From positions 73,552 through 137,551 of the forward strand of contig JBBCGO010000001.1 in assembly GCA_037200925.1 (NCBI GenBank): a stretch of 64,000 bases of DNA. The letters are read 5' to 3'. Shown piece after piece: positions 45,245 through 64,000 of the stretch. Below the pieces are notes generated by a model. It did not search any database. It saw only the letters and a program-made list of their open reading frames with translations, and was not told the origin of the DNA. Both the position numbers and the translations under genes were made by a program. The stretch comes from Candidatus Doudnabacteria bacterium. GTDB lineage: Bacteria > Patescibacteriota > Doudnabacteria > UBA920 > O2-02-FULL-48-8. The first letter of the stretch is position 1, and each line of letters starts with the position of its first letter.

Positions 45245-45269
45245 TTGTGGATAAATCGAATTTTGTAGA

Positions 45270-45300
45270 AAACAAGCCGACAAAAAGTCGGCTTGTTTTA
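45270..45300 (+). terminator. Rho-independent terminator
   Basis: 'aaaacaagccgacaaaaagtcggcttgtttt'. Confidence 0.75.
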
Positions 45301-45382
45301 GCAATAGATTGACTGTTGTAGGTAAAATTTTGACCAACCTGGTAAATACAAATAGGATGTAAAAGCAATTAATCGGAAATTT

Positions 45383-46138: not shown

Positions 46139-46156
46139 AAATTTCGCGGAGGAACA

Positions 46157-46435: not shown

Positions 46436-46517
46436 GATCCAGGCAGAGCGCACATCTTTAAAAAAGGTACGCTGCTCTGCCTTCTTTTTTTGCCTATTTT
46501 TTGATATACTTTCATGC

Positions 46518-47579
46518 ATGAATGACAAGAAAAAAACAGTTGTAGTGGGAATGAGCGGGGGAGTGGATTCTTCTGTTACAGCAGCTTTGCTGAAAGAGCA
46601 AGGCTTTGATGTGATCGGCGTGTTTATGAAAAATTGGTCGGAAGATTTTGGCGATCACGGCTGCACCTGGGCCGAGGATTCGGAAGATGCCAGAAAAGTG
46701 GCGCAAATTCTGAACATTCCGTTTTATATCTGGAATTTTGAGAAAGAATATTATGACAAAGTTGTAGAGTATTTTTTCCGCGAGTATGCGGCTGGGCGCA
46801 CGCCGAACCCGGACGTGATGTGCAACACTGAGATTAAATTCAAGGTTTTTCTGGAAAAAGCGCTGAGTTTGGGAGCAGATCATGTCGCAACAGGACACTA
46901 TGCCCGTATTGAAAGGGGAAAGCTTTTGAAGGGGATTGACCTTTCAAAAGATCAAAGCTATTTTCTCTATACCTTGAAACGATCACAGCTTGAAAAGATC
47001 ATGTTCCCGATAGGGCACTTGAAAAAGTCAGAAGTGCGCCTGCTGGCAAAAAAGTTTAACTTGCCGAATGCCGAGAAAAAAGATTCGCAAGGCATTTGTT
47101 TTATTGGGAAGATCAACGTCACGGAATTTTTGAAAGCTCACGTGAAAGCTGAGGTTGGCGAGATCGTAACGGCTACGGGAAAGGTTTTGGGAAGTCATGA
47201 CGGATTGCCCTATTACACCATCGGCCAGCGCGAAGGCATGAAACTCGGCGGTTCGGGACCTTATTATGTAGTGAGCAAAGATTTTAGCGCGAACCGGTTG
47301 GTAGTAACAAATGATAAACAGGATGAACAGCTATGGAAAAAAAGCTTTACAGTTTCAGAATTATCATGGGTGAACACCAGTCCTGATCTTCCATTGCATA
47401 CAGGTGTGACGATCCGGTATCACCACCCGGAATATTCGGCTAAGCTGGAACAGATATCAGGTAACAAATTGAAAGTAATTTTTGATCAGCCGCAAAGAGC
47501 CATAACGCCGGGACAGTCAGCCGTAATTTACCAAGGAGAAGAGTTGCTTGGCGGCGGCATCATAGAACAGATTTTTTAA
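46518..47579 (+). CDS. mnmA: MnmA/TrmU tRNA 2-thiouridylase
   Basis: 'VVVGMSGGVDSSV' PP-loop, 'CNTEIKF', 'GADHVATGHYARI'. The ORF track starts at 46413; ATG 'MNDKKK' at 46518. Confidence 0.85.
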   Translation: MNDKKKTVVVGMSGGVDSSVTAALLKEQGFDVIGVFMKNWSEDFGDHGCTWAEDSEDARKVAQILNIPFYIWNFEKEYYDKVVEYFFREYAAGRTPNPDVMCNTEIKFKVFLEKALSLGADHVATGHYARIERGKLLKGIDLSKDQSYFLYTLKRSQLEKIMFPIGHLKKSEVRLLAKKFNLPNAEKKDSQGICFIGKINVTEFLKAHVKAEVGEIVTATGKVLGSHDGLPYYTIGQREGMKLGGSGPYYVVSKDFSANRLVVTNDKQDEQLWKKSFTVSELSWVNTSPDLPLHTGVTIRYHHPEYSAKLEQISGNKLKVIFDQPQRAITPGQSAVIYQGEELLGGGIIEQIF

Positions 47580-47603
47580 AGTTACACAAAATTTTGGCAT
47601 AAA

Positions 47604-47646
47604 AAAAGAAGAGGTTGACAAGTAGTGGGACTTGTCCGCCTCTTCT
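47604..47646. terminator. Bidirectional terminator between mnmA (+) and the minus-strand GC-rich gene
   Basis: 'aaaaaaagaagaggttgacaagtagtgggacttgtccgcctcttct': nested hairpins with an A-tract on the plus side and a T-tract on the minus side. Confidence 0.55.
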
Positions 47647-48076
47647 ACACGATCATTTCTTCCGGTTCATCTTCAGGTTCGAGATTGTCTACTCCATCTT
47701 CGAACGGAAAGCCCATGAACGGCTGAAGATCCGCGATCATGGACACGTGCTCGAGAACCCAGCCGTTGTAGATGACGAAGATATAGACCTCCGGGCAGCT
47801 GGGATCCTCTTGAAGAAAAGAAACTTGGACATGCTTCTGCCAGTTCCGGAAACCGGAACCCGGTTTGCAGAAATCGCGGCTATCCACGCCTTCGCTGAAC
47901 ACGATCAATCGACATTGATCGCCGCTGCGAAGGGTGACGGCCGGATGCAGTCTTCCTGCATCATCCATGACGAGGTCAAGGTAGCGGGACGTGTGGGGCT
48001 TGGGCTCAATGCCAAAGTCGCAGTCGTCAGCAGAGAGTACCGTCTGACACTGACTCAACGTTAACCGTTGCCTCAT
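47645..48076 (-). CDS. Hypothetical acidic protein; GC-rich cassette
   Basis: About 57% GC. GGAGGG sits 5 nt before ATG (MRQRL) at 48076; the ORF track extends to 48082. Confidence 0.4.
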   Translation of the reverse strand: MRQRLTLSQCQTVLSADDCDFGIEPKPHTSRYLDLVMDDAGRLHPAVTLRSGDQCRLIVFSEGVDSRDFCKPGSGFRNWQKHVQVSFLQEDPSCPEVYIFVIYNGWVLEHVSMIADLQPFMGFPFEDGVDNLEPEDEPEEMIV

Positions 48077-48163
48077 TATCACCCTCCTGGGTAATTACGG
48101 GAACGAAAACAATTGCTACAAGTATAGCCTAAATATAAAAATCTTCCAAAACGAGCAAACGGA

Positions 48164-50185
48164 TCAGGCCAAAAAACTGATTATAAGAAGAGCCACGATA
48201 TTGATGATCTTGATCATGGGGTTGATGGCAGGGCCTGCAGTATCTTTGTAAGGATCGCCGACAGTATCACCCGTGACCGCGGCTTGATGCGCCAAAGAGT
48301 TCTTGCCGCCGTAATTGCCTTCTTCAATATATTTTTTTGCATTATCCCAAGCCGCCCCGCCGGAGGTCATGGAGATAGCCACGAACAGGCCGGTAATGAT
48401 CGAGCCGACCAGTACGCCTCCCAATGCTTTGGCGCCCAAGAACGGGATTATGCCGACCAGGATCGGCACCACAACCGGCAATAAAGCAGGCACGATCATT
48501 TCTTTAATAGCAGCCTTGGTCACGATGTCGACAGCTTTGCCGTAATCGGGTTTGGCCGTGCCGGCCATGATGCCGGGAATTTCCTTGAACTGTCTGCGGA
48601 CCTCTTCCACTACGGCGTGTCCCGCTTTACCTACTGCCTGCATGGCCATGGAAGCGAACAGGTACGGCAGCAAGGCCCCGATGATCAATCCGGCCAAAAC
48701 TTTTACGTCAGACAGATCAAACGTCAGATGTTTGCCAAGAGCATTTAACTCTTCCGTGTAAGAAGCGAATAATACGACTGCGGCCAATCCCGCTGATGCG
48801 ATCGCATAACCCTTGGTCACAGCCTTGGTCGTATTGCCCACCGCATCCAAAGCATCAGTTGATTCGCGTACAGATTCCGGCAGGCCCGCCATTTCCGCAA
48901 TGCCGCCCGCATTGTCCGTGATGGGTCCGAAAGCGTCAATCGCTACGATAATGCCGGCCATGGAGAGCATGGAAACCACGGCGATGGCTGTGCCGTAAAT
49001 ACTGGAGCCGGGAAGGCCATCGAGCCCGCCAAAGTGATAAGAAAGCAAGATCCCGCTGATGATTGCAAGCACCGGCAGCGCCGTGGCTTGCATGGATACA
49101 GCCAGGCCCGTGATTATATTCGTGCCGTGCCCTGTTGTTGAGGCTTCGGCAATTGACCGGACGGGCTTGAATTTTTTTGACGTGTAATATTCGGTTATCA
49201 GGACCATGGCCGCGGTAACTCCCAAGCCGACTAGAGTTGAATAAAAAAAGCCTTTGCTGAAAAGCGGAATGAACAGGCTTTTGGTGACCCAGTAAAATCC
49301 GAGCGCCGCCAGAATAGCGGATACTGCCAGGCCCTTATAAAGCGCAGTCATGATGGCTTTGTCCACAAGCCGGACAAAGAATGTGCCGATAATGGAAGCA
49401 AAGATCGATACGGCGCCCAGTGCCAGAGGATAAAGAATGAAAAGAGAGTTGCCTTTAAATATAATGTTGCCCAAAAGCATGGCCGCGATGGTGGTCACGG
49501 CGTAGGTTTCAAACAGGTCCGCGGCCATGCCGGCATCATCCCCGACATTGTCGCCGACATTGTCCGCGATCACCGCAGGATTCCTGGGGTCATCTTCCGG
49601 AATGCCGGCTTCAATTTTTCCGACCAGATCAGCCCCGACATCCGCGCCTTTGGTAAAGATCCCTCCGCCAAGCCGGGCAAACACTGAGATCAGGCTCGCT
49701 CCAAAAGCCAGGCCGACCAGGGATTTGATGTCCCCTGTAAATTTATAAAATAAGGTCACTGCCAAAAGCCCTAAGCCCACAACAAAAAATCCCGTGACCG
49801 CCCCTCCTTTGAAAGCCAGCGAGAAAGCAGGCTCTAGCCCGGACTTGGCCGCTTCGGCTGTGCGGACATTGGCTCTCACGGCCACGAACATTCCGATAAA
49901 CCCGGCGCATGCCGAGGCTATCGCTCCGACTGCGAATCCTTCCGCGGAATGAACACCCAGATATTTCCAGATTATCAGATCCAGGACCACTGCCACCACT
50001 GCCACAGTCGAATATTGGCGGAAGAGAAATGCATTTGCGCCTTCCTGGATGGCGGCTGCGATCTCCTGCATTTTTTTATCGCCCGTAGGTTTTCCCAGGA
50101 CCCAATAAGTGATGATCAGTCCGTAAGCAATTGCAGCCAACCCCGCGACGACCGAAAGCATGAAAATACTTGATTCTGAGAGCAT
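48164..50185 (-). CDS. hppA: Membrane-bound H+/Na+-translocating pyrophosphatase (V-PPase)
   Basis: '[18 protein letters not shown]', '[26 protein letters not shown]'. About 16 TM helices. Confidence 0.9.
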
Positions 50186-50218
50186 AGTAAAAAGATATTA
50201 AGTGTTAAACCTTAGCAA

Positions 50219-50488
50219 TTATAGCATGCCCTGAAACTTTTCGGCCAGAAGTTTCTTAAGCTTTTCCTGCGCTTCCTGGTGGGCTTCCTTGATATTTTTT
50301 TCTATTTCCGGATGATGCAGATCTATTTCCTGGGAGATGTCGACCTTGATAAGTTCATGATTGCCGTTTAAGGTCACGCTGAAAAAGCCGTCTTTTGAAG
50401 AGCCTGTGACTTGTTCAAAAGCCATTTGTTTTTGGATCTCCTGCGCCTGCTTCCGCAGATTATACAGGTCTTTCAGCTGGTCAAACAT
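50219..50488 (-). CDS. ybaB: YbaB/EbfC nucleoid-associated protein
   Basis: 'MFDQLKDLYNLRKQAQEIQKQM...TGSSKDGFFSVTLNGNHELIKVDI'. Confidence 0.8.
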   Translation of the reverse strand: MFDQLKDLYNLRKQAQEIQKQMAFEQVTGSSKDGFFSVTLNGNHELIKVDISQEIDLHHPEIEKNIKEAHQEAQEKLKKLLAEKFQGML

Positions 50489-50568
50489 GCGCTGATTATA
50501 GCACGTTGATTTGCCATCCCAAATCCTCTATAGTGTGGACAAGGAGCGGCAGTCAAGGGAGGAATGTT

Positions 50569-50772
50569 ATGAACGGATTGTTTGCGGAACAAGCCCCTGT
50601 GCAGACGTCGGGTCAATGGAAGCGGATCGCGCTTACAGTCGTGCTGATCGTCATCATCGCAGGGCTGATGCTTTGGCTGGCTCTGGGGAACAGGGCGTCC
50701 AGCCAATCCAGCTCGCCGCAGAAGGCACCATCACCAAGCAGCGCGATCTTCTCACTGCCGTTCAACACCTGA
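50569..50772 (+). CDS. Hypothetical small single-TM protein; GC-rich cassette
   Basis: GGGAGG sits 7 nt before ATG 50569. About 58% GC. Followed by 'gcgctttttcttttt'. Inside ORF 50506..50772. Confidence 0.4.
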   Translation: MNGLFAEQAPVQTSGQWKRIALTVVLIVIIAGLMLWLALGNRASSQSSSPQKAPSPSSAIFSLPFNT

Positions 50773-50858
50773 AATTTCAGCCACGCAAGTGCAAGGTTGC
50801 CTGACCTGTGCGCTTTTTCTTTTTAATTCTATTCACCGGGTTGTGCTAAACTTAGGTT

Positions 50859-51560
50859 ATGGACTATAAAAAAGTCAGCATAATCATCCCGGTTTACAAT
50901 GAGCGCGCGACGGTCCAAATAGTTCTCGATCAGGTTAAAGCCGTTTCAATCGGCAATATGGAAAAAGAGATCATTTTAGTGGACGACCATTCTACTGACG
51001 GTACGACTGAGCTTTTAAAAAATTTGAATGACCCGCAAATAATAGTATTCACGCATGAAATAAATCTCGGAAAAGGCGGGGCACTCCACACGGGTTTTAA
51101 GCAAGCCTCAGGGGATATTGTGGTAATCCAGGATGCCGATCTGGAGTATGATGCCAGCGAAATAGAAAAAGTAATAGCGCCTTTTTTGGAACAGAATGCC
51201 CATGTGGTTTACGGCTCCCGGTATCTTGAAAAGCAAGGGTTAAGTTTTTGGCACAGTTTTTTTAACAGAATATTTACCGGGTTTTCCAACCGGTTGACAG
51301 GCCAGAACCTGACGGATATCATGACTTGCTACAAAGCCTTCAACCGGCAGGCGCTGAGCTCTGTAGTTGACAAACTGGAATCAAAACGATTCGGGTTTGA
51401 GCCTGAGGTCACAGCCAAACTACATCGGGCCGGGTTTACTATCATTGAAGTGCCGGTCTCATATCGGCCGAGATCGCGCGGAGAAGGCAAGCATATGAAT
51501 TTTAAAGGCCAGGTAGAGTCGTTATGGGCCTTGGTCAAGTACTCACTATTAAAGAAATAA
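50859..51560 (+). CDS. GT2 glycosyltransferase, polyprenyl-phosphate glycosyl synthase type (DPM1/GtrB-like)
   Basis: 'VSIIIPVYNERATV', 'LVDDHSTDGT', 'VVIQDADLEYD'. Confidence 0.8.
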   Translation: MDYKKVSIIIPVYNERATVQIVLDQVKAVSIGNMEKEIILVDDHSTDGTTELLKNLNDPQIIVFTHEINLGKGGALHTGFKQASGDIVVIQDADLEYDASEIEKVIAPFLEQNAHVVYGSRYLEKQGLSFWHSFFNRIFTGFSNRLTGQNLTDIMTCYKAFNRQALSSVVDKLESKRFGFEPEVTAKLHRAGFTIIEVPVSYRPRSRGEGKHMNFKGQVESLWALVKYSLLKK

Positions 51561-51616
51561 TATGACTGAAATATTTTCCAGAAAAAAATATTATTATTGC
51601 CGCGGTTATTATACTC

Positions 51617-52225
51617 GTGGTATTAGCTGCAGTGTTTTTCAGATCCCAGATGGTTCCGTCGTCAGTAGTTTTGCAAGTACCGTTTACACCGCAGGCTCCT
51701 ACGGACAATTGGAGCCGGAACGAAGACTGCGAAGAAGCCAGCGTTACCATGGCCAATGCATATCTTAATGGTCAGACTCAAGACCAGATGTCGGCGGACG
51801 ACGCCCAGAATGCCATAAATCAGCTCAAGAATTGGGAAAATATCAATGCAGGCTATAATATGAACACTGGGGCTGATGCCACGACGCATATGGCGCAAGG
51901 TGCCTTTGGGATATTAGTCACGCCTATTCTAAATTACTCAGAGCAGGATTTAAAAAAAGCGCTGGCTGAAAAGCACGTGGTTTTATTGCCGCTGAACGCT
52001 AAAATATTAAATCCGGCAAAGTACAATGACAATGGCCCTTTGTATCATATGATCGTGGTCCGCGGCTATAATGAAAAAGAGTTCATTGTTAATGATCCGG
52101 GAACCAATTCGGGCGACGGTAATACGTATACATTTGATACTTTAAAAAAAGCTTCGGCAGACTGGGATCAGGCAGCCAAGGCTATGGATCCCAACAGAAA
52201 AGTCGCGCTGATATTATCTAAGTAA
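51617..52225 (+). CDS. Peptidase_C39-like (papain-fold) domain protein, probably membrane anchored
   Basis: 'QAPTDNWSRNEDCEEASVTMANAYL' resembles the C39_2 Cys region; 'YHMIVVRGYN' is the His region. Removing one A from the A7 run at 51582..51588 joins ATG 51562 in frame and gives an N-terminal TM 'IIIAAVIILVVLAAVFF'. Confidence 0.5.
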   Translation: MVLAAVFFRSQMVPSSVVLQVPFTPQAPTDNWSRNEDCEEASVTMANAYLNGQTQDQMSADDAQNAINQLKNWENINAGYNMNTGADATTHMAQGAFGILVTPILNYSEQDLKKALAEKHVVLLPLNAKILNPAKYNDNGPLYHMIVVRGYNEKEFIVNDPGTNSGDGNTYTFDTLKKASADWDQAAKAMDPNRKVALILSK

Positions 52226-52228
52226 CAG

Positions 52229-52257
52229 GTTGAAAACTTGGCCTAAAAATGATAAAA
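52229..52257 (+). promoter_or_regulatory. Promoter of tRNA-Gln (TTGAAA-17-TAAAAT)
   Basis: TTGAAA 52229..52234 and TAAAAT 52252..52257, 12 nt before the tRNA 5' end. Confidence 0.5.
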
Positions 52258-52269
52258 TAAAAAAAACTG

Positions 52270-52343
52270 TGGGGAGTAGCCAAGTGGTAAGGCAATGGAC
52301 TCTGAATCCATCATCGAAGGTCCGAATCCTTCCTCCCCAGCCA
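52270..52343 (+). tRNA. tRNA-Gln (anticodon CUG), CCA encoded
   Basis: 'TGGGGAG...CTCCCCA' acceptor stem with U1-A72, as in E. coli tRNA-Gln. D-arm 'GCCAAGTGGTAAGGC', anticodon loop 'CTCTGAA', T-arm 'GAAGGTCCGAATCCTTC', then GCCA. Confidence 0.85.
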
Positions 52344-52411
52344 AAAAAACCAAAGAAAAATGAAAATCATCGCAGGACAATTCGTTCCCAAAGATCTGCC
52401 TAAAAGACGCG

Positions 52412-52810
52412 ATGTTATTTTTCTTGGCGCGAGGTCTTCTAGAGCCAGAGAAAATTATAATACTACTGCTGCGGATTTTGTTCTGCAAAACTGGATCCGG
52501 AAATATTTTAAAAAATCCGGTGTTTGTGACTGACATGATCAAAACCAAAGGCAGAGCCGGCAAACGTTTCAGAGAATGGGAAAAAGATGCAACGTTCAAA
52601 AACATTCTTCTAAAAGAACTTAAAACTATAAACCCGCACATTATTGTCGTCATGAACCGTAAGGCTGAGGAAATATTAAAAAATGACCCGTTATTTTTAA
52701 AGTACAAAAAACGGGTCCGATCAATTTATCCGCCATATTATGTTGCGCGGTGGAATAAATTCAGGGATTGGGATTCTCAATTTAAAAATATTGTAAAAGC
52801 CTTAAAGTGA
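52412..52810 (+). CDS. Hypothetical protein, possibly 5'-extended to ATG 52360 across an A6 run
   Basis: The frame from ATG 52360 ('MKIIAGQFVPKDLPKRRDVIFLGARSS...') stops at 52524. Deleting one A at 52493..52498 fuses it to this ORF ('...YFKNPVFVTDMIKTKGRAGKRF...'). No family recognised. Confidence 0.3.
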   Translation: MLFFLARGLLEPEKIIILLLRILFCKTGSGNILKNPVFVTDMIKTKGRAGKRFREWEKDATFKNILLKELKTINPHIIVVMNRKAEEILKNDPLFLKYKKRVRSIYPPYYVARWNKFRDWDSQFKNIVKALK

Positions 52811-52847
52811 AACTATTTTTTGCTTTAGTCGTATAATTAATAAAACA

Positions 52848-53315
52848 ATGAAAAAATATCTGATTTCGATTGCCGTGGTTCTGATTTTTGGGTTCTATGT
52901 CGCCTACGAGAGAGGCGTTTTTAAAAGAAATGATAACAATATAGCGGTTTATCCTGATCCGGTAAGCCAGGTTCCGCCCGCTCCGGCACCCTCTCCGACA
53001 CCTGCACCAACCCCGACGCCGGTGGCGTCAGGGCAGTATAAGGATGGAGAATATACAGGTAATGTAGCTGACGCGTTTTACGGCCCTTTGCAGGTTAAAG
53101 CTGTAATCAGCGGCGGTAAGATCACTGATGTGCAATTTTTGCAGTATCCGAATGATAGGCCTGAATCAATCCAGGTCAATACTGCTTCTAACCCGATACT
53201 TAAGAAGGAAGCGATCGCAACCCAAAGCGCGAAAGTAGATATTGTGTCCGGAGCCACGCAAAGCAGCGAAGCGTTTCAGCAATCACTGGCTGCAGCGCTG
53301 GGTCAGGCCAAATAG
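52848..53315 (+). CDS. Membrane-anchored FMN-binding domain protein (flavinylation substrate)
   Basis: N-terminal TM, a Pro/Thr/Ala linker, and FMN_bind domain 'GEYTG...LQVKAVISGGKITDVQFL...DIVSGATQSSEAF' with the [S/T]GA[S/T] flavinylation motif. Confidence 0.75.
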   Translation: MKKYLISIAVVLIFGFYVAYERGVFKRNDNNIAVYPDPVSQVPPAPAPSPTPAPTPTPVASGQYKDGEYTGNVADAFYGPLQVKAVISGGKITDVQFLQYPNDRPESIQVNTASNPILKKEAIATQSAKVDIVSGATQSSEAFQQSLAAALGQAK

Positions 53316-53318
53316 CGC

Positions 53319-54047
53319 ATGAAACAAACGAAGATAATAATGGGCATGCCGGTTACGGTTGAAATAATCGATGATAAAGACCCGGAAGTTTTAGGCCGGG
53401 TTTTTGATTATTTTACCGAAGTTGATGAAAGGTTCAGTACCTATAAAAAGGAAAGCGAAATCAGCAGGCTCAACTGCGGCGAAATTGCGCTTGCTGACGC
53501 AAGCGGAGAAATGAAGACCGTATTTGAACTGGCGGAAAAAACAAAAAATGAAACTCGCGGATATTTTGACATTAGAAAACCGGACGGCAATTTCGATCCA
53601 TCCGGACTTGTCAAAGGCTGGGCGATCAATAATGCCGCAAAATTATTAGACCGGGAGGGAGTTAAAGAATTTTATGTTGAAGCCGGCGGCGACATCCAAA
53701 CCGCGGGCAAGATCTGGAAAATCGGGATTAAAAATCCGTTCAATCAAAAAGAAATTATCAAAGTTGTTCATCTGCGCGGCCAAGGGATAGCAACATCGGG
53801 GTCATACGAGCGCGGGAACCATATTTACAACCCTCACCAAAAAGGGCAAAATATTGACGAGATCGTCAGTTTAACTGTCATCGGACCGAATGTGTATGAA
53901 GCCGACCGGTTTGCCACAGCCGCGTTTGCAATGGGCAGGGACGGGATTATCTTCATCGAAAACCTTTCCGGGTTTGAAGCATACATGGTAGATAAAAAAG
54001 GGATCGGTACAGAGACAAGCGGGTTTGGAAAGTATACAAATGCTTAA
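53319..54047 (+). CDS. apbE: ApbE-family FAD:protein FMN transferase, short form
   Basis: 'MGMPVTVEIIDDKD', 'SEISRLN', 'FDPSGLVKGWAINNAAKLL', 'VEAGGDIQTAGK'. Confidence 0.75.
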   Translation: MKQTKIIMGMPVTVEIIDDKDPEVLGRVFDYFTEVDERFSTYKKESEISRLNCGEIALADASGEMKTVFELAEKTKNETRGYFDIRKPDGNFDPSGLVKGWAINNAAKLLDREGVKEFYVEAGGDIQTAGKIWKIGIKNPFNQKEIIKVVHLRGQGIATSGSYERGNHIYNPHQKGQNIDEIVSLTVIGPNVYEADRFATAAFAMGRDGIIFIENLSGFEAYMVDKKGIGTETSGFGKYTNA

Positions 54048-55542
54048 TTTCATAGATAACTATCTGAACAAGATCACGATGTACCGTCTGGTGCTGTATT
54101 TTTTGGCGGCACTTATGATCTGGGCTATCGGTCTTTGTTTTTTTGGTGTTCTGGCGTTCAAACCACTTGATCTTATTTTTTCAGCCGTTATTTTGATAGC
54201 GGCCTCGTGGATAGCCAACGCCCTGTTCGCCGCGGCTTTTAAAGTTCCTGCCAACGTTGAATCAGATTATATTACAGCTCTGATTTTAGCGCTGATCATC
54301 ACACCGCCGTCAGCCACCGGCTCTCATTATTTTTCGGGATTGGCTTTTCTGATCGCAGCAGCTGTGCTGGCGCAGGCTTCCAAGTATATTTTGGCTTACA
54401 AGGCAAAACATATTTTTAACCCGGCGGCATTTGCTCTGGTCGTAACCGCATTTACTATCAACCAGTCGCCCAGCTGGTGGATCGGAACGCTTTGGATGCT
54501 GCCGGTGGTGCTGATCGGCGGGCTTTTGGTCGCGCGAAAGATCCAAAGGTTTGACCTGGTTCTAAGTTTCCTGGTCATGGCTCTAGTTTCAATTATTGCC
54601 CTGTCTCCCTCCAAATCAGATCCGGTATTTTTGGTTCGCAAGATCCTTGTTGATTCACCGATCGTGTTTTTTGCCTTTATCATGCTGACCGAGCCTGTCA
54701 CAACACCGCCGACCATGAGGCGGAGGATCTTTTATGGCGCATTCGTCGGGTTGCTGTTCGGCCCTTCGGTCCACATCGGCAATATTTACTCCACGCCTGA
54801 GCTTGCGTTAGTGGTGGGAAATGTTTTTGCTTATATTCTGAGCCCAAAAGTAAAGCACCTTCTAACCCTTAAATCTAAAGAAGCCGTTGGTGCGGATACT
54901 TATGACCTCGTCTTCCAATCCAAACACCCGATGAAATTTGAGCCGGGCCAGTATCTGGAATGGACCGTCGGCCATAAAAAACCCGACAATCGGGGCAACC
55001 GCAGATACTTTACTATCGCCTCGTCGCCTACGGAACCGGAAGTGCATCTTGGCGTAAAATTTTATCCTCAAGCAAGCAGCTTTAAACGAACTTTGTTCGA
55101 TCTGCCTGCCGGCAGCCATGTTCTGGCCGGTCAACTAGCAGGTGATTTTACCTTGCCCCAAGATCAGGCGAGAAAACTGGCTTTTATCGCAGGAGGCATA
55201 GGCATCACGCCTTTTAGGAGCATGGTCAAATACCTGTCGGATAAAAATGAAAAGCGCGACATTGTCCTGTTCTATTCGAACAAAACCGAGGGAGAGGTCG
55301 CGTATAAGGACGTTTTATCGGCAGCTTCCGAAAAGATAAACTTGAAAACGATCTACCTGATAACGGAAAAAACAGGCTATTTGACTGCTGAAAAGATCAG
55401 GGCGGAAGCGCCGGATTTTTTTGACCGGACTTTTTATGTTTCCGGCCCGCGCGGCATGGTCCGGGCTTTTGAAAAGACCTTAAATGATATGGGCATTCCC
55501 AGAACGCAGATCAAGACAGACTTTTTCCCGGGTTTTGTTTGA
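54025..55542 (+). CDS. Polytopic membrane protein fused to an FNR-like FAD/NAD(P)-binding oxidoreductase domain
   Basis: An ~8-TM N-terminal half, then 'RYFTIASSP' (RxYS FAD motif), 'AFIAGGIGITPFRSM' (NAD(P) GxGxxP) and 'FYVSGPRGMV'. Confidence 0.65.
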   Translation: MESIQMLNFIDNYLNKITMYRLVLYFLAALMIWAIGLCFFGVLAFKPLDLIFSAVILIAASWIANALFAAAFKVPANVESDYITALILALIITPPSATGSHYFSGLAFLIAAAVLAQASKYILAYKAKHIFNPAAFALVVTAFTINQSPSWWIGTLWMLPVVLIGGLLVARKIQRFDLVLSFLVMALVSIIALSPSKSDPVFLVRKILVDSPIVFFAFIMLTEPVTTPPTMRRRIFYGAFVGLLFGPSVHIGNIYSTPELALVVGNVFAYILSPKVKHLLTLKSKEAVGADTYDLVFQSKHPMKFEPGQYLEWTVGHKKPDNRGNRRYFTIASSPTEPEVHLGVKFYPQASSFKRTLFDLPAGSHVLAGQLAGDFTLPQDQARKLAFIAGGIGITPFRSMVKYLSDKNEKRDIVLFYSNKTEGEVAYKDVLSAASEKINLKTIYLITEKTGYLTAEKIRAEAPDFFDRTFYVSGPRGMVRAFEKTLNDMGIPRTQIKTDFFPGFV

Positions 55543-55614
55543 GGGTTGTGGATAAAATCCGTTTGACTCAGAAACCATTTTTGCTAGTATAGGGCATAAT
55601 TAAGAAAGAAATCT

Positions 55615-56629
55615 ATGCCAAAAATAATGGCGGAATATATCTGGGTTGACGGGGGAAAACCGACGGCCAGCCTGCGCTCAAAGACAAAAATTTTGGATTA
55701 TGAGGTCAGGATCTTATCTGACGCACCGGACTGGGGATTTGACGGCTCTTCCACTATGCAGGCCGAAGGCCCACAACAGCGATTGCGCACTGAAGCCCGT
55801 GTTCTTTGTCCCTGACCCGATCCGCGGTGCGCCGCACGTTTTGGTTTTATGCGAAGTTTTTGAAGCAAGCGGCATGGCGCATCCGAGCAATACCCGTGCG
55901 AGACTTCGAACTCTCGCAGAAACATACAAAGACCTGGAACCGTGGTTTGGCATAGAACAGGAATACACTTTATTTAAAAACGAGCGACCGCTGGGATTTC
56001 CCAAGGATGGGTTTCCTGCTCCACAAGGGCCATACTATTGCGGCGTCGGTGCGGAAAAGATCTTCGGCAGGGGATTGATAGAGGACCATATGGGCGTTTG
56101 CATAAGAGCCGGCCTTCAGATCTGTGGCATCAATGCCGAAGTTATGCCGGGGCAATGGGAATTTCAAATAGGTCCGTTGGGCTCTCTGGCGGTTTCAGAT
56201 CACATGATGGTCGCCCGATGGCTTTTGGAAAGGCTGGGGGAGAACTACGGCATTGCGGTTTCTTTTTCACCCAAACCGGTCTTGGGCGACTGGAACGGTG
56301 CCGGGGGCTCACGTAAATTTTTCCACCAAGGCCATGCGAGCGCCGGGAGGAATAGAAGCCGTCAAAGAAGCCTGCGAGAAACTGAAATTGAAGCATACCG
56401 AGCATATTGCCGTTTACGGGGGCGGGAAATGGACACCAGGCTGACCGGAAAGCACGAAACCGCAAACATCAACGAATTTCGATATGGCGTTTCTGATCGC
56501 GGAGCATCGATCAGAATTCCCATGTCCACCGCCAACAATAAATCCGGCTATTTGGAGGACAGAAGGCCTGCCGCAAACATGGACCCTTATCAGGTTACGG
56601 CACGGTTGATCGAAACCGTTGCCGGCTGA
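55615..56629 (+). pseudogene. glnA: Type II (eukaryote-like) glutamine synthetase, disrupted by three homopolymer frameshifts
   Basis: 'MAEYIWVDGG', 'WGFDGSSTMQAEG', 'LVLCEVF', 'FGIEQEYTLF', 'GPYYCGVG', 'NAEVMPGQWEFQIGP', '[10 protein letters not shown]', '[28 protein letters not shown]' and 'YLEDRRPAANMDPY' are spread over three frames. The shifts are at CCC 55770..55772 (+1), G5 56303..56307 (+1) and AAA 56427..56429 (-1). Confidence 0.8.
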
Positions 56630-56644
56630 TGGGGAAATCTCAAA

Positions 56645-56668
56645 GTCGCCTAGTAGGCGGCTTTTTGG
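56645..56668 (+). terminator. Rho-independent terminator after the GS locus
   Basis: 'cgcctagtaggcggcttttt'. Confidence 0.5.
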
Positions 56669-56707
56669 TATGATTATGTATATCGCAAGCGTAAGTATTT
56701 GAAACTC

Positions 56708-57085
56708 ATGAAAGAAGACAAACTGGCCAAAGAACTGGAAACTTACAGGCAATTGGCCAAAAATGATAAAAAGATCGATGTTGCAAGCCTGGCGATAAGC
56801 GCCATGCTGCAGCAGGAATCCAACCGTGCTCACCGCTTAAAGAAAAGCGCTGGGCTTATCTGATCTCCATCGGCGTGCCGCCGTTTGGGCCTGTTCTTTG
56901 CCTTTAAGTTCTATTTCAGCGGCAAGGACGACGGGGAACAAGCCGCCTGGATCTGCGCGTTGCTGACAGCCGTGTCGCTTCTGTCATTTGTGCTGATCGG
57001 CAAGATCCTTTTATCATCAAGCGGCACAAATGTAAACCAGATCACGCCGTCGCTCATTCCGCAACTGCAGCAGATTACGAACTAG
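56708..57085 (+). pseudogene. Possible small membrane protein (TM2-domain-like), interrupted by an in-frame stop or two frameshifts
   Basis: ATG 56708 runs to TGA 56863. ORF 56885..57085 is in the same frame. The intervening +1 frame reads 'KEKRWAYLISIGVPPFGPV'. The downstream 'FKFYFSGK...AAWICALLTAVSLLSFVLIGKIL' resembles a TM2 domain. Weak. Confidence 0.25.
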
Positions 57086-57337
57086 CACTTCCATTTCTAA
57101 ATCGAAACTACCTAAAAACCCCGTCATAGGCGGGGTTTTTAGCAAAAAGGTTGACGTTTCCATTGTATGTAGGCAACACTCCTAATTAATTTATTAGGCC
57201 AAAGGCCTAGCCGGCCTGCTGGCTGGTTGCTACGAGGAAACGCATACTTGCGCTACTTCATTTAGCATCCTTATATCTCTCCCTTCAAAGTTATCTTAAT
57301 ACCAGGCTATTAATTGTCAATTAGTACGAATGCACAA

Positions 57338-58725
57338 CTAGTAAGAATCCCGGTCATTGCGATAACTGATACGGTTCGAGTCAAAAGGCTTCCGGTGATT
57401 GGCATCAAAACCCTGGTCCTGCGGCGCTCCCGGCTTGTGCGCGGAAACTGCTCGCGTTGTTTGAAGCGGCTTTTGGATTTTCTGCCTCCTGAGGGGAAAT
57501 TGCCTTGGCCTGTCGCTTCTTGGGAAGCGTTCATTCCTCTGCTGGGTTTGCCGCACATAACCGTGCCTTGGCTGTTCGGGCTGCGTAAACCCTGTTGCCA
57601 GGTCCGGGGATTGTTTTACGGGCAGATTGATCTTGATCAGGCGCTCAATGGACCGAACATCCTGCCTCTGGTCGGGAGTGGCAAACGACACAGCTTTGCC
57701 CGACATTCCTGCTCTGGCCGTTCGGCCGATGCGGGTGCACATAGTCCTCCGGATTTTCCGGCAGGTCATAATTGATAACCAGTTCAATTCCGGTGACATC
57801 AATGCCGCGCGCTGCAATGTCTGTGGCGACGAGAACTCTATGCCGGCCGATCTTAAATCCCTCCAAAGCTTCCTTTCGCTGGCCCAAAGATCGGTTTGAA
57901 TGGATCTCTGATGCGGTATGCCCCATATTTCTTACGGCATGCGCGATCTTTTTTGCGCCGTATTTCGTCCGGGTAAAGATCAGCACCGAACCTTTATGTT
58001 CAGCCCAGAACTTTGGCAAGCAACGCCAGTTTTTTTTCGCGGTTAACAAAAAATACTTCTTGGGTCACATCGCTCGCAGTGGATCCGGCGGGGGCGACTT
58101 CAATCCTTATCGGAAGAGACATGTATGTTGTGGCGATCCGCACGATCGGATCAGGCATGGTGGCGGAGAACAGCATGGTCTGGCGCACCTTCGGGACCTT
58201 TGCCAGAATTTTCCGGATCTGCGGCTCAAAGCCCATATCCAGCATTCGGTCAGCCTCATCCAGGACCAGAATTGAAACGTTTGACAGATCTAGCGTGCGC
58301 TGTTCCAGATGGTCGTTCAACCGCCCCGGCGTGCCGATGACGATATGAGGGTTCTGCCTTAGCGCGCGGATCTGGCGGTTTATAGGTTCGCCGCCGATGA
58401 GCACTGCGGTTTTAAGCCCGAGCGAACGGCCGATCTTTTGTAATGCTTCGTCCACCTGGATGGCCAGTTCACGGGTCGGCAAAATAACCAGACCGCGGCC
58501 TTTATGCTGGACCAGCCGCTGGATCATAGGAATACCAAAAGCCAGGGTCTTGCCGGTCCCTGTTTGAGCAATGCCCATGACATCCTTGCCTGCGATCGCG
58601 ATCGGTATTGATTGATGCTGGATCGGAGTCGGGGTAATAAATTTTAATTGCGCTAAAATCTCCAGAAGCTTAGGCGCAATTCCTAAGCCTTCAAATGAGG
58701 TAGTCTGCAACGCTTGAGCGTTCAT
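57338..58725 (-). CDS. DEAD-box ATP-dependent RNA helicase (RhlE/DeaD-like); the reading frame is broken twice at homopolymers
   Basis: Q motif, 'AQTGTGKT', 'PTRELA', 'DEAD', 'SAT' in ORF 58000..58725. 'VLIFTRTKYG...ARGID' is in ORF 57645..58049. 'RIGRTARAG' is in ORF 57338..57817. Shifts are at plus-strand CCC 58003..58005 and GGG 57733..57735. Confidence 0.8.
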
Positions 58726-58846
58726 AAAAAAATTCTTGACCCGAGCTCCAATGGGTCAAGAAAGACAATATTGGTTTCGAGTCGGTATAAATTGAATGAC
58801 AACTAATTTTAACTTTTTTTGGCCGTTTTGTCAATACTTTGATAAA

Positions 58847-60622
58847 ATGGCTAATATGGAACGAAATCAAAAATCTCTCGCGGTAGTAATCCTGATGCTT
58901 ATCTTCACTGTTTGGTTTTTGCATAACACCAAATTGGATTTTCATTTGATCTTCCAAAAAGACCTTCTGGCGCAGGATGAGTCTTCCAATTCCGTGGTCG
59001 AAGCCAACATTACGCGCAAATTTTTTCCGCCCATGGTTCGGGTCAATCCGCTGAATGAACAGCAGGGGAACTGGATGGAAGGACCTTACTGGCAGCATAT
59101 CCCGCCCCTGTTTGCATATGTGCCTTATTTATTTTTTAAACTTGACGGGCAGGTGACGATAGAGGTCAAAAGATTATCTTATGCGTTTGTAGTTTTGCTC
59201 ACAGGCTTTTTGTTCATCTGGAGCATTTATCGGTTCAAAAAAAGTTTGCTCGCAGCCGGGGCTGCAGCCTTGGCAGCATTTTTTTGGATCAGCACGCCTT
59301 TCACGCAGGAACTGATCACAGGTTATGCATTTGGGGTGTCAGATATTGTTTTGGCGTTCACCGCAGTCTGCGGATTTTCTGCAGTTCTTTGGTATCTGGA
59401 AAGAGAGCGGGAAGAACGCATTAATTATCCTTTTTGGAAACTAGCTGCTATCGGTTTGATCGTTGCTTTGCCGATCATGGCCAAAAACATACTTGGGGCA
59501 ATACCGGGCGCCGCATTTTTTGGCTTGCTTTTGTGGGATAGGAAAATGATCGACAAAAAAGTTCTTGCTGCAGCCGGCTCGTTTCTGGTTTTTTTGGCGC
59601 TTTATTTTCTGCCCCTATATTTCGCCTCGCCGCAAACTTTCAAAATAGAATTCTTAGTTTCATTCCTGCATTTCAAGCAGTTGGAAGGATGGGGCAGGCC
59701 CTGGCATTGGTATGTGACGAATTATCTGCCGCAAAGATACTTGGGGCGCTGGACATGGGTTTATTATCTTGGGCTGATGCTTGGAGTGATCTTAAATTAT
59801 AAATTTGAAATTATAGATCGCAAAGACAGGATTCTTCTCTGGCTGTCCGGCGGCTGGTTTATTTGGAATTTAGTCGCAATTTCCTTGGTCACGTCCAAAG
59901 TCCCGAATTTTATTTACCAAAGCTATTTGTTCAGTTTATTTTTTGTAATTTACGCCATACTCGCATTTGCGAGGAGGGCAGCGACGCGGCAATCGGCTCT
60001 CGGCAGGATAGAGGGAGCTCCGCAGTTTAGACTGCCACGCCTCGCAAGCGAGGCTCGCAGATTCGTAAACAAAGCGATAGTCGCTGGTTTGATTTTATCA
60101 ATGCTTGCAACCGCCTATGAAAGCGTCAGATTTATCCAGCAATTCAAGGTACAGCGCGCGCAAGCCTACGATTATCAGACCGAGCACGAGAAATTTTATC
60201 AAACCGCGGAAGAACTGCGGACTATGGGATTGAACACAAAGGATTTAATTATCGTCCGCGTTTCTGACAATGATTGCTGGTTCCGCTACTATCCGCTGTT
60301 TTTGACAGGCACAGAGTCAAAAACTCTGCTTGAGATGAATTTTGGTTATGATCCCGATGCCATCAAGCAGCAATATTCGCGCATGTTTTTTGTGGAAAAT
60401 AAATCAGAGCCCGACTTTAACGAAAACCGCCGGATAGAATTAGCCGATTATTCGCTGCTTGAATTTGATCTGGGCCAGCTGAACCCCGGCCAAATAAAAG
60501 CATTGGTTGATTCATTTGTCAGTTTTCATGCTCAGGACATCCAGCAGGATATTTTACGCATAAAAAAAGACAAGACCTCTTGCCAGTGGCTGGTTCCTGA
60601 TCCGATATTGAACGCCCCGTGA
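58847..60622 (+). CDS. GT-C fold glycosyltransferase (GT39/GT83, PMT/ArnT-like), ~12 TM
   Basis: First-loop acidic motif 'QDESSNSVVEAN', then 'GNWMEGPYWQHIPPLFAYVPY', characteristic of PMT_2/ArnT-like enzymes. Large C-terminal soluble domain. Start 58847 or 58856; the ORF track starts at 58796. Confidence 0.6.
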   Translation: MANMERNQKSLAVVILMLIFTVWFLHNTKLDFHLIFQKDLLAQDESSNSVVEANITRKFFPPMVRVNPLNEQQGNWMEGPYWQHIPPLFAYVPYLFFKLDGQVTIEVKRLSYAFVVLLTGFLFIWSIYRFKKSLLAAGAAALAAFFWISTPFTQELITGYAFGVSDIVLAFTAVCGFSAVLWYLEREREERINYPFWKLAAIGLIVALPIMAKNILGAIPGAAFFGLLLWDRKMIDKKVLAAAGSFLVFLALYFLPLYFASPQTFKIEFLVSFLHFKQLEGWGRPWHWYVTNYLPQRYLGRWTWVYYLGLMLGVILNYKFEIIDRKDRILLWLSGGWFIWNLVAISLVTSKVPNFIYQSYLFSLFFVIYAILAFARRAATRQSALGRIEGAPQFRLPRLASEARRFVNKAIVAGLILSMLATAYESVRFIQQFKVQRAQAYDYQTEHEKFYQTAEELRTMGLNTKDLIIVRVSDNDCWFRYYPLFLTGTESKTLLEMNFGYDPDAIKQQYSRMFFVENKSEPDFNENRRIELADYSLLEFDLGQLNPGQIKALVDSFVSFHAQDIQQDILRIKKDKTSCQWLVPDPILNAP

Positions 60623-60623
60623 T

Positions 60624-60893
60624 CTATTCTTCAGTAACCTTATCGATAAAGCAATATTTCCAATGCTCTCCCGGCTGAAATGACCTGATCACCGGGTGTT
60701 TGGTTTTTTGGAAATGCTTGGTCGCGTGCTTGTTTTTTGACTGGTCACAGCAGCCGACATGGCCGCAAGTCAGGCAAAGCCGCAGATGAACCCATTCATC
60801 CCCGGATTTGAGGCATTCCTCACATCCTTCGGGAGTTTTGGGAACAACATCGTCGTTTGCAACCTCCAGATGTTTGCAAGTATCCATAATCAT
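60624..60893 (-). CDS. UBP-type zinc-finger (zf-UBP) protein
   Basis: 'CKHLEV...CEECLKSGDEWVHLRLCLTCGHVGCCDQSKNKHATKHFQKTKHPV' follows the zf-UBP Cys/His pattern. Confidence 0.65.
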   Translation of the reverse strand: MIMDTCKHLEVANDDVVPKTPEGCEECLKSGDEWVHLRLCLTCGHVGCCDQSKNKHATKHFQKTKHPVIRSFQPGEHWKYCFIDKVTEE

Positions 60894-60960
60894 TGCTTTT
60901 ACTTGGAATTTTGTTTAAAAATCCAATTGATTTCTTACAGGATTATTTTAGCATAATATT

Positions 60961-61146
60961 ATGGCAAAGTACGGAAAAAAAGCCCAACAAAAAGTCAAGC
61001 GCGCCATCCATGAATTCAAAAGAGGCGAGCTTGAATCCGGAGTGTCGGGAAGAAAAGTAAAAAGCCGAAAGCAGGCGATCGCTATCGGTCTTTCTGAGGC
61101 GCGAAAAAGAGGAGCAAAAGTTCCCGCGCCAAAATCCCGCGGTTAG
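60961..61146 (+). CDS. Small conserved basic protein of unknown function
   Basis: 'MAKYGKKAQQKVKRAIHEFKRGELESG...KQAIAIGLSEARKRGAKVP' belongs to a widespread small-protein family. Confidence 0.5.
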   Translation: MAKYGKKAQQKVKRAIHEFKRGELESGVSGRKVKSRKQAIAIGLSEARKRGAKVPAPKSRG

Positions 61147-61231
61147 ACATTTCCGAATATCCTCAAGCATTGTTGACGCTGCTTGGGTCAACTGCTATAT
61201 TTTGCGTGAAAGCTTTTTGAGGGAGGGCGGC

Positions 61232-61426
61232 ATGGCACAGATGCACTCGCCATTTCAAAACAAAGGAAGGATTAAGAAAGGCACGCCAAAAAAAACAAGC
61301 TCAAGGCCGCCCCATCAGCAGTCCCGGCGGCCGGATCAGCGAGGGTATGCTGCAGATCGAAGAGCCAACTGCGCGTCCCCCAGCCGCGGGAAGCACCAGA
61401 TGCTTCGAAAAGCTTCAGCCGCGTAG
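61232..61426 (+). CDS. Hypothetical very basic 64-aa protein; GC-rich cassette
   Basis: GGAGGG sits 4 nt before ATG 61232. About 60% GC. A terminator follows directly. Inside ORF 61202..61426. Confidence 0.3.
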   Translation: MAQMHSPFQNKGRIKKGTPKKTSSRPPHQQSRRPDQRGYAADRRANCASPSRGKHQMLRKASAA

Positions 61427-61496
61427 CACATGTTCACACAGGCGGCGGAGTGCGGTAACTTTTCGAGCCGCAGGAGAGCGGAAACACATAACAACC

Positions 61497-61528
61497 AGGC
61501 ATCCGGCGCTATCGGATGCTTTTTCTTT
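61497..61528 (+). terminator. Rho-independent terminator with a C-interrupted T-tract
   Basis: 'gcatccggcgctatcggatgctttttcttttt'. Confidence 0.7.
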
Positions 61529-61562
61529 TTGCTATAATCACAAAGCAATTAATCATATTCTT

Positions 61563-62321
61563 ATGGAAACTAATATCAAACCATGGCTTTGGCAGACTTT
61601 AGCGGTTTTATTGAGCTTGTTTTTGGCTTTAATCGTCGTGGATAAACTTTATGCTGTTTATCAGGATTTTCATCCCTCCGTTTCGAAAAATACGATCTCT
61701 ATGGCCGCGGACGGAAAGGCTTCGGCAGCGCCTGACCTGGCCACGATCAATATCGGGGTTATTTCCAGCGGTTCAACCGCCAAGCAAGTGCAGGATGATA
61801 TGACCGCGAAAGCGAACAGCATCACGGATTTCGCAAAACAGCAGGGGATCGATCCAAAAGACATCACAACTTCCAATTTCAGCGTTTCTCCGACCTATGA
61901 TTATCAGAACGGTAAAAATACGATCAACGGCTATCAGGGCAACCAGAGCATCACCGTGAAGGTCCACGGAGTGGACAAATCTACCGATACGCTGAGCAAG
62001 ATCTTGGGTGGGGCTGCGACCAATGGCAGTAATCAGATCCAGGGCGTATCGTTCAGTTTTGAAGATCCGGATAACCTGAAACAGCAGGCCCGCCTTATGG
62101 CAGTGGCTAAAGCCAGGGCGAATGCCCAGGACTTGGCTTCGGCCTCCGGGTTAACGCTGGGGAAAGTTATCAGCATCTCGGAAGGCAGTTCAAATATCCC
62201 GGGCCCGATCCCGTACGGCATAAGCCCGGGAGTAGCTGCTGATGTCAAATCATTGCCTACGATCGAGCCCGGCAGCCAGGATGTAACAGTTACCGTAAAT
62301 GTTACGTTTGAAATAAAATAA
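61563..62321 (+). CDS. SIMPL-domain (DUF541) protein with signal anchor
   Basis: 'ATINIGVISSGSTAKQVQDDMTAKANSITDFAK...NGYQGNQSITVKV...LMAVAKARANAQDLA' matches the SIMPL family. The ORF track starts at 61347; ATG 'METNIKPW' at 61563. Confidence 0.7.
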   Translation: METNIKPWLWQTLAVLLSLFLALIVVDKLYAVYQDFHPSVSKNTISMAADGKASAAPDLATINIGVISSGSTAKQVQDDMTAKANSITDFAKQQGIDPKDITTSNFSVSPTYDYQNGKNTINGYQGNQSITVKVHGVDKSTDTLSKILGGAATNGSNQIQGVSFSFEDPDNLKQQARLMAVAKARANAQDLASASGLTLGKVISISEGSSNIPGPIPYGISPGVAADVKSLPTIEPGSQDVTVTVNVTFEIK

Positions 62322-62333
62322 TTAACTGGATTT

Positions 62334-62486
62334 ATGGAAAAACATTATGTCTGTCCGGTTTGCGGCGGTGTATCATCTACGCCCAAGAATTGTGATACCC
62401 AGGGCTGCTCCTTAAAAGGACAACCCATGAGGCTTTGCACTTGCACGGACGGCAAGCATGAAGCCGTTATCAGCGACCAGCTTTAG
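62334..62486 (+). CDS. Small Cys-rich (zinc-ribbon-like) protein, 50 aa
   Basis: 'MEKHYVCPVCGGVSSTPKNCDTQGCSLKGQPMRLCTCTDGKHE'. Not in the ORF track because it is under 60 aa. Confidence 0.3.
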   Translation: MEKHYVCPVCGGVSSTPKNCDTQGCSLKGQPMRLCTCTDGKHEAVISDQL

Positions 62487-62488
62487 GC

Positions 62489-63046
62489 ATGGAGAATCGG
62501 GAAATTGAGGTTAAATTTTTAGAGATCGACAAAGCTGTTTTGATTGAAAGACTTTTGGATTTGGGATCTCAAGACCTGGGCGAGGAGCTAATTACCGAGC
62601 AGATCTTTTATGACAAGGAAAAAAAATGGATCAGTGAACATAAGTTTATCCGCATCCGCACAACCGGCAAGGGAATTTTTCTTACATATAAGCACAAGGA
62701 AGACAGGACTGCCACAGGCACTCTTGAGATAGAATTTCAAATAAATGAGCCGGGGAAAGCCTCTGCTTTTTTGACAGCGTTGGATCTGGTCATGTTCAGA
62801 ACCCAGGAAAAAAAAAGGCACAAATTCAAGCTTGGAGATATAACCGTCGATATCGACACATGGCCTAAAATCCCGACGTATGTGGAGCTTGAGGGCCCTA
62901 CAGAGGAGGCAATCATGGATGCATCAAAAAAATTAGGCTTTGATTGGAGCAAAGGAGTTTTCGGCACCGCCGCGTACATAATCGAAGAGGTTTACAATAT
63001 ACCGGTTCGTCAGCTGCGTTATTTTACTTTTGACCGCACGGAATAA
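62489..63046 (+). CDS. CYTH-domain protein (CyaB/ThTPase-like triphosphate tunnel metalloenzyme)
   Basis: N-terminal 'EIEVKFL' ExExK motif, plus an acidic 'VELEGP' segment. Confidence 0.7.
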   Translation: MENREIEVKFLEIDKAVLIERLLDLGSQDLGEELITEQIFYDKEKKWISEHKFIRIRTTGKGIFLTYKHKEDRTATGTLEIEFQINEPGKASAFLTALDLVMFRTQEKKRHKFKLGDITVDIDTWPKIPTYVELEGPTEEAIMDASKKLGFDWSKGVFGTAAYIIEEVYNIPVRQLRYFTFDRTE

Positions 63047-63089
63047 AAAAAAGCGCGAGCTTTATGCTCAGCGCTTCTTAAGTATTATG

Positions 63090-63357
63090 AAGCATTTTGC
63101 TATAAGGATTTACGGCCAAGTGCAGGGGATAAATTTTCGTTGGAACGCCCGGAAGCAGGCGGAAAAATTAAAGATCACCGGCTATGTCAAAAACCTGCCG
63201 GACGGCTCAGTTTTGCTGGAAGCGGAAGGAGAGCCGGCAGGCCTCGCAGAACTGGTTAAATGGTGCAAAAAAGGCCCTTGGCTGGCAAAAGTGGGGGTCT
63301 GTGGAGGTTGTTGAAGGGCCGATCCTGGGTTATAATAATTTTGAAATTAAATCTTGA
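63090..63357 (+). CDS. acyP: Acylphosphatase; C-terminus restored by removing one G from the G5 run at 63293..63297
   Basis: 'IYGQVQGINFRWNARKQAEKLKITGYVKNLPDGSVLLEAEG'. The as-given frame ends 'KVGVCGGC*'. The corrected frame gives 'KVGSVEVVEGPILGYNNFEIKS*', a typical acylphosphatase C-terminus. Confidence 0.75.
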
Positions 63358-63359
63358 AC

Positions 63360-63769
63360 ATGAAACAAAACATCAAAAGGCCTATTTATTTGATCGCGTT
63401 CACTTTTTTGGGATTTTTGCTGGGATTATTGATCGAAGCCATAGTCGAGTTTTATTATACAACCCTGCTCTTGGCGGACTTCAACCGCTACAGCTTTGGT
63501 TTGAGCTGGGCGGATCTGACCCAGATCCGGGATTTTTTTGCGGTGCTGGTCTTCCTCGCAAGCGCTTGGTGGGGATACCGCGCAGGCATATATTGGTGGC
63601 ATCAAATTTACGAACTAAATAAGTACGGGAGCAAGCAATGGTTTAAAAGGGACTACACGAAAAAACTGGGTTTGGTTTACGTGATCGCGATAATCGCGGC
63701 AATCCTTTTCGTTTATGTAAGCTCAAACAGCGAACTTACAGGAAATAATCCCGCTAAATATATCAACAA
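63360..63769 (+). CDS. Hypothetical 4-TM membrane protein
   Basis: ATG 63360 (MKQNIKRPIY). The ORF track runs to 63833, overlapping the next gene by 60 nt, so the true 3' end is uncertain. Confidence 0.4.
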
Positions 63770-64000
63770 CCATGAAAATCACCAGCACTTCGTTTACCGA
63801 GGGGGGCAATATTCCCGAAAAATATACCTGTAAAAATCCCAATCCTGTCAATCCGGAATTGAAATTTTCCGGGGTGCCGCTTGAGACGAAAAGTCTGGCT
63901 TTGGTCCTGCATGATCCTGATGCGCCGGTAGCCGGCGGATTTACGCACTGGGTAGTTTATGACATGCCGCCCCAGACCCGGATGATCGCGGAAAATTCCG
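63770..64000 (+). CDS. YbhB/YbcL (PEBP-family) protein, 3' end truncated by the window edge
   Basis: 'MKITSTSFTEGGNIPEKYTC...LALVLHDPDAPVAGGFTHWVVYDMPP' carries the PEBP signature DPDAP...HW. Confidence 0.75.

Follow-up and report, generated by a model that had tools for sequence, protein, structure and literature searches.

Does the glutamine synthetase gene of this Doudnabacteria genome encode an intact enzyme, or is it a gene in decay? The coding region as deposited lies at positions 55615–56629 (forward strand) of the 64,000-nucleotide stretch of DNA analysed here, which is referred to below as the window. It runs for 1015 nt from an ATG at 55615 to a TGA ending at 56629, and the sequence blocks of a type II glutamine synthetase (GSII) are all present in it, spread over three reading frames. 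A sequence-only reading of the window had left two alternatives, a decaying pseudogene or an intact gene masked by errors in sequencing. The comparisons presented here strongly favour the latter: the frameshifts are very probably residual PacBio HiFi read errors that have survived in an unpolished hifiasm-meta contig, with glnII itself being intact.

Identity and architecture of the glnII product

When the three frames are stitched together, the resulting protein matches the Pfam domains Gln-synt_N and Gln-synt_C (PF03951 and PF00120). Against NF041605, the NCBIfam equivalog model for GlnII, for which the curated cutoff is 500 bits, it scores 517.6 bits (E = 1e-155), with the match spanning model positions 3–329 of 333. 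The corrected product, of 336 aa plus stop, scores 521.9 bits and is above the cutoff, while the 309-aa glutamine synthetase ORF of the deposited record reaches 398.5 bits and falls below it. The models for GSI and GSIII give only 60 and 42 bits, respectively. GSI proteins are approximately 470 aa in length, and GSII polypeptides are shorter than those of either GSI or GSIII; in the present protein an N-terminal beta-grasp domain and a C-terminal catalytic domain are found within 336 aa, compared with an expected length of approximately 330–370 aa. The assignment to the type II glutamine synthetases, which had already been proposed in the sequence-only reading, is borne out by the two Pfam domains and by the above-cutoff match over nearly the whole of NF041605, and on these matches the locus is identified as GlnII.

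Over its whole length, the corrected protein (P0001) aligns with GSII proteins of solved structure, giving 445 bits for PDB ID 4BAX and 398 bits for yeast Gln1 (PDB ID 3FKY). The closest of the solved structures is 4BAX, which is 61.6% identical to P0001, with all of the conserved active-site blocks aligned; in a neighbour-joining tree, 4BAX groups with the Streptomyces GlnII. The blocks FGIEQEY, NAEVMPGQWEFQ, GDWNGAGAH, RLTGxHET, RGASIRIP and EDRRPxAN are conserved without gaps between P0001, 4BAX and 3FKY. These blocks are presumably the metal-, ATP- and glutamate-binding elements of the enzyme. Type II glutamine synthetases are decamers built from two pentameric rings.

The eukaryotic GSIIs (yeast Gln1, 3FKY; maize GS1a, 2D3A; human GLUL, 2OJW and 2QC8) belong to the same family and have the same motif blocks, with scores of 380–398 bits and, for the yeast protein, 53% identity to the window GSII. 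The window protein is shorter than these, being without their N-terminal extension of approximately 20–40 residues, and it groups with the prokaryotic GSIIs, not with yeast. The term ‘eukaryote-type’ is a historical label and says nothing of origin. Comparison with bacterial GlnII shows no difference of kind: the 336-aa size class, the Gln-synt_N plus Gln-synt_C architecture and the full-length match above the NF041605 cutoff are all shared, and the window protein is located in a Patescibacteria sub-cluster whose members are 61–81% identical to one another. GlnII is an already well-known enzyme, and there is no new gene here. Family membership indicates that its role is most likely the ATP-dependent amidation of glutamate to glutamine. 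With high confidence, glnII may be regarded as an intact gene, and the ATP-dependent glutamate-ammonia ligase that it encodes in this deadwood Doudnabacteria (Patescibacteria/CPR) bacterium is presumably functional.

Extra bases in glnII and its surroundings

The best database match to the stitched protein is P0001, which is uninterrupted over 336 aa, is 99% identical and is encoded on a 22.8-kb contig denoted L001. This contig and a second one, L088, are Logan k-mer assembly contigs of the HiFi run SRR28211699; they share HiFi reads with the deposited co-assembly and are therefore an independent consensus of the same sequencing. Logan drops k-mers with a single occurrence, in which case the L001 version would have two or more reads behind each of its bases. 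A third contig, L089, is an Illumina contig from sample 57 (SRR10968259).

Alignment with L001 reveals four frameshifts in glnII, all of them +1 and each caused by one extra base (positions on the forward strand). The first switch is due to an extra C in the CCC run at 55770–55772 (true CC). The second, inside the GDWNGAGAHVNFS motif, is due to an extra G in the G5 run at 56303–56307 (true G4), and the third to an extra G in another G5 run, at 56418–56422 (true G4). The fourth is an extra G in the GG at 56431–56432 (true G), where the corrected 17-residue peptide fits the family motif. Upon deletion of 55770, 56303, 56418 and 56431 the coding region takes its true length of 1011 nt, the DNA becomes identical to positions 444–1454 of L001, and the protein becomes identical to P0001.

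Three homopolymer frameshifts had been proposed earlier for this gene. Those at the CCC of 55770 and the G5 of 56303 are found at exactly these sites; the third, which had been placed at the AAA of 56427, and the count of three are not upheld. The DNA alignment shows in this region two one-base insertions (56418 and 56431) that lie 13 nt apart and together look like a single frame switch. The loss of one base from a run of A or G near 56,427 (the AAA at 56427–56429 or the GGG at 56424–56426) was also considered and was rejected, as the alignment gives two insertions instead.

From position 45700 to 64000 the window is base-for-base identical to contig JBBCBH010000057.1 (964,444 bp) of assembly GCA_037975565.1, in whose gene table the genes are split just as they are in the window and the 309-aa glutamine synthetase fragment (P0029) is listed. 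The part of the window from 38 to 64 kb corresponds to approximately 342–372 kb of this contig, in reverse orientation. The JBBCBH record is a hifiasm-meta r058 co-assembly of HiFi runs SRR28211698–701, with no polishing described (PMC11613949). The MAG 3_UBA920 (Patescibacteria; Doudnabacteria; UBA920; O2-02-FULL-48-8; 2-01-FULL-45-18 in the GTDB taxonomy) consists of a single contig of 964,444 bp, with a GC content of 47.29% and a CheckM2 completeness of 97%; it was found only in sample 57, at a coverage of 8.35x (PMC11613949, Table S8). The CPR affiliation presumed in the sequence-only reading is thus correct.

Comparison of the window with L001 and L088 together covers 25.6 kb of aligned sequence, in which there are 0 substitutions and 19 single-base indels. 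From position 55172 onward, 11,459 columns aligned with L001 contain 16 single-base indels and no substitutions, while the alignment of 38163–52343 with L088 contains three single-base insertions and, again, no substitutions. The segment 47811–51108 is identical to the Illumina contig L089; no Illumina contig spanning the glutamine synthetase gene was recovered. At 18 of the 19 indels the extra base is in the window, where it lengthens a run of the same nucleotide. Several of the insertions extend runs with a true length of only 1–2 nt, which is not the textbook long-homopolymer pattern. An exact look-up of the ApbE protein encoded upstream of glnII finds it on record only in the NCBI contig, so that the independent comparison is confined to positions 38,163–52,343 and 55,172 onward of the window. 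Exact look-ups of two further proteins, from the 505-aa RnfD/FNR-like ORF and from an 896-aa ORF, gave no match; the called starts probably differ.

Thirteen of the single-base indels are packed into a 2.2-kb cluster of local consensus errors (55770–58004), which corresponds to 5.8 indels per kb, compared with 0.26 per kb over the remainder of the aligned sequence (Poisson P ~2e-8). The cluster is situated directly downstream of the stretch 52,344–55,171, in which the Logan contigs break.

The cluster extends beyond glnII into two neighbouring genes. A gene for a 124-aa protein (56708–57085, forward strand) is split by three spurious bases, at 56824, 56833 and 56887; the same gene is intact in L001 and also in the relatives L083 and L086. 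A DEAD-box RNA helicase (57338–58725, reverse strand), which has 461 aa when intact, appears in the window as three ORFs by way of four indels, at 57439 (a deletion), 57493, 57733 and 58004. Intergenic DNA is affected as well, with insertions at 57144, 57199 and 52259, the last of these sitting 11 nt upstream of tRNA-Gln. Elsewhere in the window, insertions alter SecF (40651; 286 aa in the window vs 295), a C39-like peptidase (51582; 191 aa vs 220), an acylphosphatase (63293; 57 aa vs 78) and a PBP-family gene (63756; 157 + 146 aa vs 283), and an Asp/Glu racemase beyond the end of the window (at ~64,690 in extended coordinates) is likewise restored by correction. For every affected gene a full-length ORF is present in the alternative assembly. 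In relatives at 77–80% identity, the corresponding ORFs measure 336 aa for GSII, 124 aa for its neighbour and 460 aa for the helicase.

Explanations for the frameshifts

The combination of 0 substitutions with 19 indels points to an assembly artefact, since strain divergence would bring substitutions. The Logan contigs break between 52,343 and 55,172, beside the clustered indels and in a genome of 8x depth, from which we infer a local trough in coverage. At a mean genome depth of only ~8x, such a trough would leave the read correction of hifiasm-meta short of support, and the contig around glnII would then derive from a single poorly corrected read, or from very few, with the raw errors retained. 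An error rate such as that of the cluster, approximately 0.6%, would be expected of a read close to the HiFi quality threshold. The independent assembly of the same reads, in which the extra bases are absent, supports the earlier suggestion that sequencing errors mask an intact gene.

Indel errors that fragment genes in long-read assemblies have been described (PMC12007338, PMC11392814), and the errors in HiFi contigs that are fixed by metaMDBG polishing are mostly homopolymer errors (PMC11392814). The present case is like these in featuring single-base indels at nucleotide runs, several adjacent pseudogenized genes, no substitutions, low coverage and an unpolished assembly. It differs from the usual pattern in that the reads are HiFi and not nanopore, 13 of the indels fall close together, within 2.2 kb, nearly all are insertions, and several are at true runs of 1–2 nt.

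It could be proposed instead that glnII is a true pseudogene, inactivated together with its neighbours by slippage in a real and possibly minority strain, with the Logan contig representing an intact majority strain. The frameshifts do stand in the deposited contig, slippage at nucleotide runs is a real mode of mutation, and gene loss occurs in reduced genomes. However, true divergence yields far more substitutions than indels, whereas the 25.6 kb compared, in which the intact allele of glnII is included, has indels and no substitutions at all; moreover, the indels are one-sided, with 18 of the 19 being insertions. The same type of defect affects at least seven unrelated genes, including those for the DEAD-box helicase and SecF, and the packing of 13 indels into 2.2 kb, the coverage of only 8.35x and the unpolished assembler output also argue against this explanation. 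In a pseudogene the disruptions would be carried by the bulk of the reads; the independent assembly of the same HiFi run lacks all four insertions in glnII. Relaxed selection is not apparent either, as no stop codon remains after correction and the allele is otherwise unchanged. A decaying pseudogene, the other alternative raised from the sequence, is therefore extremely unlikely.

Less probable still is that the frameshifted molecule is real and derives from a minority deadwood lineage that has accumulated many one-base insertions, for instance a cell line prone to slippage or deficient in repair. If so, glnII, the helicase and their neighbours would be inactivated in some cells, with the majority allele remaining intact. 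Programmed recoding or phase variation (ribosomal frameshifting, transcriptional slippage, or on/off switching at runs), to which the position of the switches at short one-nucleotide runs might point, is hardly conceivable: recoding would have to take place four times in a single gene, each time by +1, with comparable events in the neighbouring genes and in intergenic DNA (57144, 57199), the true runs, of only 1–4 nt, do not reach the length of those in known contingency loci, an uninterrupted version exists in the same read set, and 28 of 28 translated homologous loci are uninterrupted.

Residual read errors, the explanation preferred here, have consequences for the use of the record. A single-contig MAG, ‘nearly finished’ by its label and with a CheckM2 completeness of 97%, contains indel errors in local bursts, and such errors break at least seven genes in the ~23 kb of the window compared. 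Because the deposited glutamine synthetase ORF is under the family cutoff (398.5 vs 500 bits), an annotation that relies on thresholds could overlook the organism's ammonium assimilation. Until the reads have been consulted, any other gene in the window or in the assembly that looks frameshifted or like a pseudogene is best regarded as an artefact. The locus is chiefly of value as a warning about the assembly; it offers little new biology, intact GlnII being common in Patescibacteria records.

Distribution, origin and neighbourhood of glnII

The presence of GSII had been regarded as unusual for a CPR genome, a view that is contradicted by full-length GSIIs, at 61–81% identity, in records of Saccharibacteria, Uhrbacteria, Magasanikbacteria, Staskawiczbacteria, Pacebacteria and Liptonbacteria. 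Full-length homologues in the database number in the thousands, those with names including Pacebacteria, Liptonbacteria, Uhrbacteria and Magasanikbacteria. Among the best 80 loci in GTDB species representatives are those of Saccharibacteria, Uhrbacteria, Magasanikbacteria, Staskawiczbacteria and other Patescibacteria, as well as Marinimicrobia, Binatia, Acidobacteriota, Myxococcota, Actinomycetes and Thermoplasmatota. Judged by these database matches, GSII is common in Patescibacteria. A search of the literature on glutamine synthetase or GSII in CPR/Patescibacteria found nothing specific.

The GC content of glnII (52.8%) is indeed above that of the window (47.2%; z = 1.84, top 3% of 1-kb windows), as had been noted from the sequence, but the acquisition that this was taken to imply is not supported. 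A recent horizontal transfer of GSII into the CPR genome would be in keeping with the elevated GC and with the patchy occurrence of GSII across bacterial phyla, many of which show much the same identity (61–69%) to the window protein. Against it, the GC3 of glnII is 0.55, which is ordinary within the range of 0.43–0.68 for the genes of the window, and other conserved genes of the window are as GC-rich, with 53.0% for both the H+-PPase and the DEAD-box helicase; the GC excess of glnII is attributed to amino-acid composition. Synteny is also conserved: a relative in which GSII is only 80% identical has the same upstream order of H+-PPase, GT2, FMN_bind, ApbE, RnfD/FNR-like protein and GSII, and has the 124-aa gene and the helicase downstream as well. 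In a rough neighbour-joining tree, rooted on yeast and without bootstrap, the window GSII nests with those of Saccharibacteria, Uhrbacteria and Magasanikbacteria in a Patescibacteria cluster. Codon-position composition, gene order and phylogenetic placement thus give no indication of recent transfer, which is considered very unlikely.

Upstream of glnII, a sigma-70-like promoter match (55563–55590, forward strand; TTGACT, a 16-nt spacer and TG-TAGTAT) lies 25 nt upstream of the start codon; it agrees with the consensus and no more, such matches being no more numerous than expected from shuffled sequence. Just past the stop codon there is a hairpin followed by a short T run, resembling an intrinsic terminator (56642–56664, forward strand; MFE -15.4 kcal/mol, z = -2.9), which was not listed by a simple terminator scan after glnII. 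The promoter-like site and the candidate terminator hairpin suggest that glnII may be monocistronic.

The region directly upstream of glnII (53319–55542) encodes an ApbE flavin transferase and then a 505-aa protein in which an NqrB/RnfD-like membrane domain is fused to an FNR-like FAD/NAD-binding domain. These two genes are preceded by one for an FMN_bind protein, and the 80%-identical relative has the same cluster. Upstream of the FMN_bind gene, at 52360–52810, there are two overlapping small ORFs of 57 aa and 94 aa that look like a split gene; the relative has a single FMN_bind protein of 236 aa at their position.

Two further features were observed elsewhere in the window. In the region 34999–36547, a SAM riboswitch (RF00162, 57 bits) is located approximately 500 nt upstream of a metK ORF. 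At only 312 aa, this ORF spans positions 2–366 of the 377 in the model, yet its score of 239.5 bits is below the cutoff of 309.4; either this MetK is a shortened Patescibacteria form or assembly errors affect this stretch too. Finally, three paralogous genes of approximately 470–500 aa are found at 11554–13056, 13687–15171 and 17237–18649. Their C-termini are near-identical (…NASAGQAPNFHEVTP), and each of the three is preceded by a smaller gene.
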